Source: Thermoplasmatota archaeon (lineage in GTDB: Archaea > Thermoplasmatota > JAKEGO01). From it: a DNA stretch of 52,775 nt. Location: positions 1 to 52,775 of the forward strand of contig JANQNK010000009.1 of NCBI GenBank assembly GCA_028279595.1, in the 5' to 3' direction. Below, piece after piece: positions 43,722 to 51,351 of the stretch; positions within the stretch are counted from its first letter, which is position 1; every line of letters begins with the position of its first letter. A model generated the notes under the pieces. The model made no database searches and was not told the origin of the DNA. It was given only the letters and a program-made list of their open reading frames with translations. A program made the translations under genes and the position numbers.

Positions 43722-44600
43722 ATGGCACTTGAAGATCATAAGTATCTGTCGTACTACCTCGCCATCCTGGTGATAGCGGGACTGCTCGTGGTAGCCGCGT
43801 TCAATCCGCCCGAGGAGACGAAGCAACGAGAGCAGAAGGCGCAGCTCGGCGACGAGGTGAGCGTCATCTACGTCGGCAAGTTCACCGACGGTCGGATCTT
43901 CGACACTAACAATCCAGCCGCGAACGCGGACGACGTCCTCTATCCCAAGGCGGCCAGTTATCTCACGAAGGACCCTGCCCAGATACAGCCGCTGCGGTTC
44001 ACCATCGGCGCTGGACAGCTCCTGACCGACTTCGAGATGGCGGTGGTCGGGATGAAGGTCGGGGAGATGAAGACGATCACGATCCCCGCGGAGCGGGGGT
44101 ACGGCCTCGACGACGAGAACCTCACCATCGACGTGGACATCATCCAGGAGCTTCCCGTCTTCGAGAGGATGCATCTCGACGATTTCAACAACACCTACGG
44201 CGATACATATGACAGGGGCCAGGATGCGCCCCCGATCAACCTGTCGTTCTCGCATTACGCCTACGGATGGAACGTAACGGTCGTCGCTATTGACGGCGAC
44301 TGGCACGTCCGCCTCATGAACCTCCCGGTCGCGGGGCCGGTCGACACCTTCCCGTGGAACGCGTCGGTAATAAACGTCACGACCGAGGGCAACGGGACGA
44401 TCCTCGTGGAGCACAGACCGATCGTCGATCAGATGCTCTCCGCCCAGTACCAGCTGATCGATCCATGGAGGCCGCAGGACACATCCGCGTCCGATGGACG
44501 GGTTATCGCGACCAACGCGACGACGTTCACACTCGATTACAACCGAGAGGTCGTCGGAGAGACGCTGGTCTTCGACATCGAGCTCATAATCATCCATTGA
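43722..44600 (+). CDS. Membrane-anchored FKBP-type peptidyl-prolyl isomerase with enlarged insert-in-flap domain
   Basis: N-terminal TM; GDEVSVIYVG..DGRIFDT, PLRFTIG, GMKVGE, PAERGYG ... GETLVFDIE. Confidence 0.88.
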   Translation: MALEDHKYLSYYLAILVIAGLLVVAAFNPPEETKQREQKAQLGDEVSVIYVGKFTDGRIFDTNNPAANADDVLYPKAASYLTKDPAQIQPLRFTIGAGQLLTDFEMAVVGMKVGEMKTITIPAERGYGLDDENLTIDVDIIQELPVFERMHLDDFNNTYGDTYDRGQDAPPINLSFSHYAYGWNVTVVAIDGDWHVRLMNLPVAGPVDTFPWNASVINVTTEGNGTILVEHRPIVDQMLSAQYQLIDPWRPQDTSASDGRVIATNATTFTLDYNREVVGETLVFDIELIIIH

Positions 44601-47488: not shown

Positions 47489-47707
47489 ATGGGGTCGCTG
47501 GCATTCGTCAACACAATAGGTGGAATCATACATGGGTCGACACTAGCTGTATTCGTAGAGCTAGCTGTCCTCAATCTCTTCACCTACCTGAAAGCGGTCG
47601 ACAAGTTCGACCAGACTCTCGTCCTTTTGGTCGTCGTCGTGAACGTCGCGACGCTTATCACGCTCGATTGGTTCCGTAACGGAACAGAACAGTATGAGAC
47701 CGCCTAA
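47489..47707 (+). CDS. Possible small hydrophobic protein
   Basis: 72-aa ATG ORF with two hydrophobic stretches; no family support. Confidence 0.35.
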   Translation: MGSLAFVNTIGGIIHGSTLAVFVELAVLNLFTYLKAVDKFDQTLVLLVVVVNVATLITLDWFRNGTEQYETA

Positions 47708-47808
47708 CCTCCTCAAGGTTTTTGACGGTACCTCGACTCGCTTGCACCTCATTCATCATTCATCCCAATCGCAACGGTCATATACCAGACAAATTATCCT
47801 TCGCCGAA

Positions 47809-47880
47809 AGCCCCGTGGTGTAGCGGTTATCATGGGAGACTCTGGATCTCTCGACACCAGTTCGAATCTGGTCGGGGCTG
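47809..47880 (+). tRNA. tRNA-Gln(CUG), intronless, CCA not encoded in register
   Basis: Acceptor AGCCCCG/CGGGGCT (A1-U72), anticodon arm GGAGA-CT CTG GA-TCTCT, T arm ACCAG-TTCGAAT-CTGGT, discriminator G. Confidence 0.96.
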
Positions 47881-47906
47881 TCCATTCTTATCAACCACTT
47901 AGTGAA

Positions 47907-47951
47907 GACAGCCCCGACATCCAGTAATTTGCATGCAGCCCAGATTCGAAC
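47907..47951 (-). repeat. Inverted copy of the tRNA 3' end, interrupted by 22 nt
   Basis: GACAGCCCCGAC (47907-47918) + CAGATTCGAAC (47941-47951) is the exact reverse complement of 47860-47882. Confidence 0.8.
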
Positions 47952-47952
47952 G

Positions 47953-48149
47953 AGGGTGAGATGAGTTCAGAGCAATATGTTCCATCTCACCCGAAGCCGG
48001 ACGATTAAGAAGGAAGAAACCTGCAAGATTTACGTCCGGAAGTTAAAATCCGTAATTAATCAAGGGTGAACCGCTTTCCAGGTCTGCGATCGGTTCACCC
48101 GAAGCCAGGCGCTTAAGAATGAATTGATCTGATGGATTAACGCCAGGAA
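47953..48149. repeat. Two tandem copies of a structured double-stem motif (~88 nt each)
   Basis: Units 47954-48041 and 48064-48149: 10-bp hairpin + GAAG + 7-bp stem, with compensatory changes. Confidence 0.85.
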
Positions 48150-48186
48150 ATCGTTATCCCTTCCACCCCTAAATCATCCGTGTCGT

Positions 48187-48201
48187 GAAAAGTTTTTAAT
48201 A
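48187..48201 (+). promoter_or_regulatory. BRE-TATA promoter of tnaA (leaderless or short leader)
   Basis: GAAAAG-TTTTTAATA ending about 30 nt upstream of ATG 48230. Confidence 0.6.
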
Positions 48202-48229
48202 CAGCGACCCGCTGGAACGCCTGAGACCC

Positions 48230-49609
48230 ATGAAGACCATAATCGAACCCTTCAGGATCAAGATGGTCGAGCCAATGAAGATGACCTCCCGCGAAGAGCG
48301 GGCCAAGCTGATCGAGGAAGCGAGGTACAACCTGTTCTTCCTCAAGGCCAGGGACGTCATGATCGATCTGCTGACGGACAGCGGGACGAGCGCGATGAGC
48401 TCGGACCAGTGGTCCGCGGTCATGCGCGGCGACGAGGCCTACGCCGGGAGCGAGTCCTACTTCAGGTTCGAACAGGCGGTCAGGGACATCTACGGCTTCG
48501 AGCATATCATTCCTACTCACCAGGGCCGTGCTGCGGAGAAGATCCTCTTCTCGAACCTGTGCAAGGACGGCGACGTCGTTCCGAACAACACCCACTTCGA
48601 CACCACCCGGGCGAACGTGGAGTACACCGGCGCAGAGGCCCGGGACCTCGTCATCCCGGAGGGGAGGGTGCCGTCCGAGATACATCCGTTCAAGGGAAAC
48701 ATGGACATCGACGCCCTGCAGAGGACGATCGACGAGGTCGGTGTGGACAACATACCGCTTATCATGCTCACGATAACCAACAATTCGGGGGGAGGCCAGC
48801 CGGTCTCGATGGAGAACATCCGGATGGTGAGCGAGATCGCACATTCGAATGGGATCCCGTTCTTCCTCGACGCTTGCAGGTTCGCTGAGAACGCATACTT
48901 CATCAAGCTGAGGGAGGACGGTTACTCCGACGTCAGCATGATGGACATCGCCAACGAGATCTTCTCCTACGCGGACGGCTGCACCATGAGCGCAAAGAAG
49001 GACGGCCTCGCGAACATGGGAGGATTCCTGGCATTGAACGACGCGGAACTTGCGGAGAGCTGCCGCCACCTTTTGATCCTGACCGAGGGATTCACCACCT
49101 ACGGGGGCATGGCGGGCCGGGACCTGGATGCGGTCGCGACAGGTCTGAGGGAGGTCCTGAGCGAGGACTACCTCAAGTACAGGATAAGCTCGACGGACTA
49201 CCTCGGCCGGAAGATCTCCGAGAACGGGGTACCGATCATGCAGCCGCCGGGCGGACACGCCATCTACATCGACGCCAAGGCGATGCTGCCTCGCATACCT
49301 CCACTTCAGTATCCCGCCCAGGCCCTCGCGGTGGAGCTCTACATCGAGGCCGGCATCAGGGCCGTCGAGATAGGTACCGCGATGTTCGGGAAGTACGACC
49401 CGGAGACCGGCGAGGAGACCGCCGCCCCCATGGAGCTGCTTAGACTCGCAATACCGAGGAGGGTCTACACCCAGAGCCAGATCGAGTACGTCATCGAGGC
49501 CATCCTCAACGTCATGGAGAGGAAGGATTCGATCGTGGGTCTGAAGATGGTAAAGCAGGCGCCGTTCCTCCGCCACTTCACGGCGGAGTATGAGCCGCTA
49601 TCGGACTGA
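48230..49609 (+). CDS. tnaA: Tryptophanase (beta-eliminating PLP lyase; tyrosine phenol-lyase less likely)
   Basis: [23 protein letters not shown] (PLP Lys), [13 protein letters not shown] (Trpase-like; TPL has ERG here), RLAIPRRVY. Confidence 0.88.
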
Positions 49610-49677
49610 AGCTCCGGCCGGATGACAGATATATCTATGAGTACACCATTACGGTTGAGTACAAGGGGATAGGACCG

Positions 49678-51351
<1,674 letters not shown>

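Follow-up and report, generated by a model that had tools for sequence, protein, structure and literature searches.

An undescribed family of hairpin units carrying copies of tRNA 3′ ends in Thermoplasmatota archaea, and its local variant behind a tRNA-Gln gene

The stretch of DNA analysed here (the window, 52,775 nucleotides) is an archaeal contig that carries the 3′ end of a 23S rRNA at positions 1-388, as identified with Rfam. Near its other end, a tRNA-Gln gene is followed by an array of two hairpin units and by a gene for a beta-eliminating lyase (Table 1), which is a downstream neighbour and lies outside the element. Comparison with a genome from a sister genus (G001) and another from the same order (G002) showed that a lyase gene is present between the tRNA-Gln array and the GlnRS gene (window positions 48230-51351) only in the window genome; a small ORF is found between the array and glnS in G002, and in G001 glnS is divergent from tRNA-Gln. 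Since this gene order is restricted to the window genome, the lyase gene looks like a later insertion or rearrangement at the tRNA-Gln locus.

Table 1. Features of the tRNA-Gln locus, numbered from the first nucleotide of the window.
Feature	Position	Strand	Basis	Remark
tRNA-Gln(CUG)	47809..47880	+	ARAGORN; Rfam RF00005, 57.9 bits	host tRNA of the array
26-nt trailer between tRNA and inverted copy	47881..47906	+		counterpart of the canonical 21-35-nt A/T-rich trailers
Inverted copy, part 1	47907..47918	+		exact reverse complement of 47871-47882 (acceptor 3′ strand + 2 nt)
21-nt variable insert	47919..47939	+	sequence	splits the inverted tRNA-end copy
Inverted copy, part 2	47940..47951	+		exact reverse complement of 47860-47871 (T-loop + T-stem)
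Unit 1, hairpin 1	47954..47992	+	inverted repeat I7; fold	10-bp stem, 19-nt loop
Unit 1, GAAG linker	47993..47996	+	sequence	
Unit 1, hairpin A (= hairpin 2)	47997..48039	+	model R1, 58.3 bits (circular seed score); family alignment A4	
T-loop-like remnant GTTAAAATCC	48042..48051	+		compared with GTTCGAATCT of the tRNA
Unit 2, hairpin 1	48064..48100	+	inverted repeat I8; fold	10-bp stem, 17-nt loop
Unit 2, GAAG linker	48101..48104	+	sequence	
Unit 2, hairpin A	48105..48147	+	model R1, 62.5 bits (circular seed score)	7-bp stem, one A.A mismatch, loop CTTAAGAATGAATTGA...
A/T-rich TATA-like box	48193-48201		sequence	downstream of the units, before the lyase gene
Beta-eliminating lyase gene (tnaA-like)	48230..49609	+	Pfam PF01212, E = 8.8e-85; ORF list	

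The first-pass annotation of this DNA had described two double-hairpin units behind tRNA-Gln. The units are real, and all of their elements lie where that annotation had placed them. The arms of hairpin 1 are GGGTGAGATG/CATCTCACCC in unit 1 (47954-63/47983-92) and GGGTGAACCG/CGGTTCACCC in unit 2 (48064-73/48091-100); in either case the 10 bp are 100% complementary. Three adjacent compensatory changes had been reported between these stems, whose loops measure 19 and 17 nt, and each of the three is indeed compensated; the comparison set for hairpin 1 consists of the two window copies and a truncated G001 ortholog only. The invariant GAAG and the gap-free block behind it were also recovered, as part of a gap-free direct repeat of 55 nt (47987-48041 vs 48095-48149; identity 75%, spacing 108), and the window pair is a tandem duplicate, with a period of 108 nt, of a two-hairpin module in the tRNA-Gln trailer. 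The sequence TCACCCGAAGCC has only two sites in the window, which are in the two units (chance expectation 0.26). The stems of hairpin 2, CCGGACG/CGTCCGG (47997-48003/48033-39) and CCAGGCG/CGCCAGG (48105-11/48141-47), differ by the A-U to G-C swap and the single mismatch noted at first, the latter being A.A. Unit 1 has a predicted folding energy of -34.6 kcal/mol (z = -5.8; 0 of 200 shuffled sequences as stable), and the fold of unit 2 is less stable relative to shuffled sequence (z = -1.6).

The first element of the array, 27 nt behind tRNA-Gln, is a split inverted copy of the tRNA end (47907-47951), and the hairpins behind it are followed by T-loop-like remnants. The two parts of the inverted copy were detected as inverted repeats I4 and I2, each of 12 nt and 100% complementarity, and both are conserved in G001. 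The insert between them has a different sequence in G001 in spite of the conserved flanks, and no second copy of 47919-47939 was found in the window's own genome. The tRNA-Gln array of G001 starts in the same way as that of the window, and the 5′ arm of unit 1 hairpin 1 is conserved as far as the end of the G001 contig, which falls inside this hairpin.

Searches with Rfam 15 matched only tRNA and rRNA in the window, and for region 47700-48300 a threshold of E < 10 gave nothing beyond the tRNA and a chance miRNA match. Nine other loci bearing the motif also had no Rfam match, which agrees with the initial view that the motif is unrecognised. Full-text literature searches gave no description of such units; the nearest case is a short palindrome behind tRNA genes of Methanopyrus, which has an unrelated form. 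The location between a tRNA gene and a lyase gene, together with the stability of the hairpins, might suggest a local function in cis, either as terminator or 3′-processing signal of tRNA-Gln or as leader or regulator of the lyase gene. This is highly improbable. The same hairpin and layout occur behind many tRNAs with unrelated downstream genes, G001 and G002 lack the lyase gene at the tRNA-Gln position and yet have units there, and the T-rich tracts directly behind the tRNA would already terminate archaeal transcription. The TATA-like box at 48193-48201 is downstream of the units, and together with the recurrence of the hairpin behind many unrelated tRNAs this fits the earlier remark that the units are probably not a tnaA leader.

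Hairpin 2 was found to be a member of a dispersed family and is called hairpin A below. In the window's own genome (G000; 2.29 Mb, 21 contigs, 86% complete), BLAST with the region revealed a third copy of the hairpin 2 loop on contig C19 and a word scan a fourth hairpin A on contig C11. These first four copies are 43 nt each and combine differing 7-bp stems (CCGGACG, CCAGGCG, CTCGATG) with a 29-nt loop starting CTTAAGA. Construction of a covariance model from the units and a scan for copies 3′ of tRNAs had been proposed with the first-pass annotation. The model (R1) was seeded with both window copies and two others, and the scores of these seeds are therefore circular. It gave 13 matches at E < 1 in the own genome, among which independent, non-seed copies scored 20-35 bits, and a relaxed scan added one further hairpin A next to an integrase gene. 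At least 12 copies are present in this genome; 10 of the 12 are in tRNA trailers, including two that are displaced by integrase-bearing islands. Matches were found behind Arg, Met, Glu, Pro, Trp and Ala tRNAs.

The family alignment (A4) comprises 14 gap-free copies of 43 nt; 12 are from the own genome, and G001 and G019, the latter from another family, contribute one each. Pairing in the outer stem amounts to 96% and six of its seven pairs have changed on both sides, values that were reached by 0 of 500 shuffled alignments. The covariation that had been proposed for hairpin 2 from the two window copies thus holds in the larger alignment. The consensus has a 7-bp stem whose sequence is free, a single bulged base, a UUA/UAA extension that does not vary and a 22-nt loop starting AGA; the pairs U9-A36, U10-A35 and A11-U34 are invariant. 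Hairpin A of unit 1 has all these elements (7-bp stem, bulged A, UUA/U-U-A extension and 22-nt loop starting AGA), and that of unit 2 shares 88% identity over 33 nt with the copy behind tRNA-Arg(CCG) on contig C19. An armless mini-tRNA, with a 5-bp inner stem and a 7-nt anticodon-like loop, was considered for this structure and rejected, as the inner helix is only 62% paired in the 14 copies.

The copies behind tRNA-Arg(CCG), tRNA-Met and tRNA-Glu(UUC) are located exactly 40 nt from the tRNA 3′ end, on the opposite strand. Each is flanked by the reverse complement of the last 10-13 nt of its tRNA on one side and by a direct copy on the other, which gives a long hairpin with a small internal loop of the GGGA/GCCAG type. 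A K-turn, C/D-box, H/ACA and bulge-helix-bulge intron at this junction were rejected by inspection only, because the consensus geometry of these motifs is absent.

Examination of every tRNA gene in the genome showed that, for 18 tRNAs, the next 700 nt contain the tRNA's own 3′ end again, in direct orientation, inverted orientation or both. Direct copies typically occur at +80 to +230 nt, with +120 to +160 as the most frequent distance, and a further copy is common at +270 to +300. Units of about 100-160 nt are present behind about 21 of roughly 45 tRNA genes, in numbers of one to three and in tandem where there are several. The canonical unit consists of an A/T-rich trailer, an inverted copy of the host tRNA 3′ end, the hairpins and, at the end, a direct copy, and the inverted and direct copies are able to zip into a closing stem around the hairpins. 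As to which direct copy is tracked by the inverted copy, the arrays give conflicting indications: the one behind tRNA-Pro points to the upstream copy and the tRNA-Gln array of G002 to the downstream one.

Two main unit types can be distinguished. Type 1 reads on the tRNA strand as an A/T-rich trailer of 21-35 nt, an inverted copy ending in ...GAACC, a short hairpin P2, GUU, a hairpin P3 with a 17-25-nt loop, AAC, a hairpin P4 (often GAUGAnGC-GAAG-GCnUCAUC), GG and a direct copy that runs from the T-loop (TCRAATCC) to the last base of the tRNA, including CCA where this is gene-encoded. RNAfold predicts a cloverleaf-like four-way junction. Among 13 aligned copies, compensatory changes were found in 16 of the 24 predicted pairs; in an alignment of 38 distinct units from several genomes, which was fitted to the type-1 model R2 and in that way favours structure, 94% of the cells are paired and 20 of the 24 pairs show double changes. 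In this alignment (A6, columns 124/180) the third pair of P4 is non-standard in half of the units, mostly G.A, beside a conserved one-base bulge, so that this position may belong to a structured motif and not simply be mismatched. Type 2 consists of hairpin A, sometimes followed by hairpin B (GTCGAT...ATCGAC), in an orientation opposite to that of the tRNA. The 14 copies of hairpin A and the 38 type-1 units support the earlier suggestion of selection on a folded single strand.

The window units correspond to neither type. They are composed of a P3-like hairpin 1, GAAG and hairpin A, and are oriented like tRNA-Gln. A search of 47700-48400 with R2 gave no match (best score 4.4 bits), and the likeness of hairpin 1 to P3 is one of layout only. 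A direct copy of the tRNA-Gln end of at least 10 nt, canonical copies being 10-24 nt, was not found downstream of tRNA-Gln, which would be explained by decay; judged by the family layout, GTTAAAATCC probably occupies the slot that the direct 3′-end copy has in canonical units. The window units represent a third, partly decayed arrangement, which also occurs in the sister genus. Their membership in the tRNA-end family is well supported by the presence of hairpin A, by the inverted copy of the tRNA-Gln end and by their position. The tRNA-Gln gene of G002 is followed by two ordinary type-2 units, with the CTTAAG hairpin antisense to the tRNA, so that the orientation of hairpin A is opposite to that in the window and G001, and a unit behind tRNA-Ala in G001 joins hairpin A to a P4-type hairpin. 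By sequence comparison, the hairpins behave as interchangeable modules and hairpin A faces either way. Three aspects are absent from the first-pass annotation: the occurrence of the motif throughout the genome, the tRNA-end framing of canonical units, and the atypical and partly decayed nature of the window copy.

Integration by tyrosine recombinases characteristically leaves tRNA 3′ ends directly repeated, and the own genome contains six tRNA-linked tyrosine integrases as well as intact islands in tRNA-Trp and tRNA-Ala. The units might accordingly be scars, att-flanking remnants of deleted tyrosine-integrase islands in which the direct copies are old attL/attR sites. We consider this improbable. 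All six integrases belong to ordinary islands outside the units, and the two intact islands have no unit-like inner ends. They have instead displaced pre-existing units: behind tRNA-Trp and tRNA-Ala(CGC), two more units were found beyond islands of 8.7 kb and about 10 kb. As the island is located between the tRNA and the unit, the unit predates the island and is not part of it. Moreover, scars would not keep their helices by compensatory change over several families, nor would they carry an inverted tRNA-end copy or a single architecture behind about 20 tRNAs.

The tRNA-Trp island is located in the region C19:187620-196760, with the far att copy at about 187888-187905 and, beyond it, a displaced type-2 unit with hairpin A at 187772-187814. 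At tRNA-Ala(CGC) (C9:44140-54576) the integrase is at the far end of the island, the att copy is at 44275-44292, and a displaced type-2 unit (hairpin A at 44193-44234) with two short tRNA-end copies lies beyond.

Incomplete and tRNA-free copies also occur. Behind tRNA-Lys(UUU), a type-1 unit (C11:19799-19913) is truncated: the inverted copy and P2 are followed by only the 5′ half of P3, where the unit breaks off; this is a decayed copy. Three orphan units of about 170 nt have no tRNA nearby (C7:33820-34010; C19:256850-257070, minus strand; C18:97330-97580, minus strand). They are found between housekeeping genes, namely one with thyX downstream, one between pcp and carA and one at another site, all start with GGTGACAAnGGGCGGGTGGGA, and they share common pseudo-tRNA flanks. 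In a search for empty sites, the G001 ortholog of the thyX spacer proved to be related and seems to be without the hairpin A loop; the G002 spacer is unrelated. The only match to PF07282, a weak one in a gene next to an orphan unit, raised the possibility of a TnpB omega RNA, which was rejected as the match is to the zinc ribbon of a ribonucleotide reductase, whose gene is followed by thyX.

The model R2 detected 16-17 type-1 copies in the own genome, depending on the E-value cut-off, 7 in G001, of which several are at contig ends, and 1 in G002, and type 1 also occurs in three genomes of two other families. In total, 6 of the 151 Thermoplasmatota genomes sampled contain type 1, spread over four families, and the distribution is patchy. 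The class to which the window belongs is represented by three genomes, all of which have units; the named records with units are Thermoplasmata and Thermoplasmatota MAGs. All R2 matches that were checked begin 28-36 nt downstream of a tRNA encoded on the same strand, and they terminate with that tRNA's own 3′ end repeated. Isoacceptors that carry type 1 in distant families are Leu-UAA, Leu-UAG, Ser-GCU, Gly-GCC and Arg-UCU. The G019 genome further harbors two units behind a tRNA-Asn gene, both of which close with 24 nt of the tRNA end, CCA included (positions 1383-1750 of locus L022, G019:C61:62836-65878). Their interiors are a hairpin-A-like stem with a TTTAAGAAG loop and a plain long hairpin, respectively, and because of these different interiors the layout must be wider than either model detects.

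With the tRNA flanks removed, the mean likeness of unit interiors is 0.75 within G001 and 0.77 within G009, whereas units behind the same isoacceptor in different genomes reach about 0.5. One interior variant is found behind tRNA-His and tRNA-Pro in G001 and behind tRNA-Leu(UAG) in the own genome, and the length of the tRNA-Leu(UAG) array differs between two species of one genus. The interior likeness, the shared variant, the differences in array length and the orphans point to spread or homogenisation within genomes and to arrays that grow, shrink and decay. An exact-pattern scan for the junction of hairpin 1, GAAG and hairpin A in metagenome and genome collections gave no match, a type-1a pattern had only chance matches in metagenomes, none with a tRNA, and viral contigs contained no convincing hairpin A or type-1 unit.

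The reading that we favour, tentatively and at somewhat less than an even chance, is that the units are small non-autonomous, self-propagating insertion or duplication modules which home to the 3′ ends of tRNA genes and are active as a single strand in folded form. In such a module, the inverted and direct tRNA-end copies would rebuild a duplex image of the tRNA gene end that could serve as recombination or target site, with the hairpins as structural or protein-binding modules, and arrays would lengthen and shorten by exchange between direct copies. The window array would be an old, rearranged member in which a 21-nt insert has split the inverted copy and the direct copies have decayed to T-loop-like remnants, while the hairpins were kept intact by compensating changes despite the decay of the array. 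Mobility is favoured because interiors are alike within a genome, one interior variant recurs behind different tRNAs, array length differs between congeners, orphan and truncated copies exist, hairpin A can face either way and the spread is patchy. If a unit were a MITE, its inverted tRNA-end copies would take the place of the terminal inverted repeats and its direct copies that of the target-site duplications; both are, however, host-derived. Of the three identities suggested in the first-pass annotation, those of a MITE-like tRNA-targeting element and a recombination-site hairpin come closest to this reading, and that of a guide RNA array was not borne out (see below).

Several results weaken the mobile reading. 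No transposase or recombinase is tied to the units, the integrases belong to islands outside them, and an autonomous, transposase-bearing partner was not found in the own genome. Genome searches (86% completeness) also gave no IS110 (PF01548), no Y1 transposase (PF01797) and no reverse transcriptase. No pair of empty and filled alleles, which would define the insertion boundaries and any target duplication, was recovered. A tRNA-specific inverted copy inside a conserved element fits no standard transposition chemistry, and the window units fail the type-1 model and are without a clear direct tRNA-Gln copy. Finally, the compensatory evolution, the bias in G.U pairs and the A/T-rich trailers, which might serve as archaeal promoters and terminators, would fit expressed RNA genes equally well.

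An RNA gene is the main rival of the mobile module, although we regard it as rather unlikely. Each unit would be a gene for a small RNA that acts on tRNA metabolism, either as a mimic of the acceptor end that is recognised by processing, CCA-adding or charging enzymes or as an antisense RNA to the tRNA 3′ end. Such an RNA would start at the A/T-rich trailer, end at a T-rich stretch and have a cloverleaf-like or long-hairpin body whose closing stem is formed with the cognate tRNA 3′ strand. Strong covariation in all internal helices argues for this, as do the pairs that are sensitive to the strand: on the tRNA-sense strand of type 1, G.U exceeds A.C by 16 to 6, and the alignment of hairpin A has 2 G.U and 0 A.C in the hairpin-A orientation, to which hairpin B adds at least five G.U by eye, not by computation (at least seven for the type-2 helices, with no A.C). 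This bias indicates that one particular strand folds, as RNA or as single-stranded DNA. Each unit also repeats the exact tRNA 3′ terminus, with the CCA that the gene encodes, and behind this repeat comes the T-rich trailer that the tRNA has as well, and the recurrence of type 1 at the same isoacceptors in distant families points in the same direction. TATA-like boxes are present in the trailers about 20-25 nt before the inverted copy; yet they are weaker and closer to the predicted start than the real tRNA promoters, which are of the TTATATA type. Further arguments against an RNA gene are that the 5′ segment of several units is paired to the CCA end itself and would bury the 3′ end, that hairpin A is found in both orientations to the tRNA, that some copies are truncated or orphaned and congeners differ in array length, and that no Rfam family matches.

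The first-pass proposal of a repeat-scaffold guide RNA array, with the stems as scaffold and the variable loops as guides, was based on the combination of conserved stems with unrelated loops, and canonical units do hold a segment complementary to a tRNA end. It is nevertheless very unlikely. The loops have no complementary target in the own genome beyond chance words of 11-13 nt, and in IMG/VR the 19-mer loop had no match and the 17-mer 11 exact matches, which is about chance according to an estimate that was not computed. Neither the surroundings of the units nor the genome searches revealed a Cas, TnpB, IscB or IS110 partner, and a reverse transcriptase is likewise missing from the search results. 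An identity as omega RNA or IS110 bridge RNA was rejected because no gene for TnpB/IscB or an IS110 recombinase adjoins the units. Archaeal C/D-box sRNAs are about 50-70 nt long with a C box (RUGAUGA) and a D box (CUGA) at their ends; in the 14 copies neither box (C, RUGAUGA; D, CUGA) occurs at a conserved position, and there was no Rfam match to C/D families, so that this candidate was discarded as well.

In several respects the units resemble known systems of folded repeats. Like REP, BIME and REPIN sequences they are short (about 40-150 nt), gene-less, intergenic and multi-copy, with strong hairpins and tandem clusters behind genes. REPs are thought to act as folded single strands, have one consensus sequence and are mobilised by a RAYT (Y1/HUH) gene. 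In the family described here, in contrast, the stems vary freely, the outer arms are copied from the neighbouring tRNA and no Y1 transposase was found. Integron attC sites, which are recombined as folded single strands, are also structure-conserved imperfect palindromes that occur in tandem next to a fixed site, and there too the crossover site is repeated at the end of every unit. The resemblance is one of logic only, as the tRNA-end units have no adjoining integron integrase, no cassette genes and no GTTRRRY core, and their arms correspond to the tRNA from T-loop to 3′ end. With the att sites of tyrosine recombinases in tRNA genes the units share a direct repeat of the tRNA 3′ end that starts in or near the T-loop, and the occurrence of tandem sites; they differ by the distance of only 80-140 nt between repeats, by the lack of genes, by the inverted copy inside and by selection on structure, and real islands in this genome lie between tRNA and unit. 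Plant mitochondrial t-elements and the tRNA-like structure before haloarchaeal 5S rRNA are partial tRNA mimics that are cut by tRNA-processing enzymes. They are adjacent to genes and share acceptor-type stems with the units, but they are single processing signals and not tandem, modular, multi-copy or matched to a tRNA.

The units form an undescribed family, of which the window pair is a local variant. tRNA genes are the main landing sites of mobile DNA in archaea and bacteria, and in this little-known class of Thermoplasmatota about half of them bear structured, tRNA-matched units that fit no database family. If mobile, these would be smaller than any element known to target tRNA ends, and the question arises how the inverted image of the target is acquired. 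If they are RNAs, they would form a set of companion RNAs, one per tRNA, which is believed to be without precedent. It is conceivable, albeit doubtful, that the units represent a new class of programmable element or RNA, in which a hairpin scaffold is combined with a segment that derives from the 3′ end of one particular tRNA and is complementary to it. This would be either a mobile element that homes to tRNA ends and incorporates a copy of its target, or a companion RNA for each tRNA which, by mimicry of the acceptor end or by pairing with it, controls maturation, charging or integration at that tRNA.

The units also have practical consequences. Several G001 contigs among C92, C74, C182, C140 and C161 start or end inside arrays, and the tRNA-His array of this genome is distributed over two contigs. 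The position of arrays at contig ends indicates that the repeats break short-read assemblies, and units are probably under-counted for this reason. By mimicking tRNA ends they may in addition mislead programs that call att sites and genomic islands.
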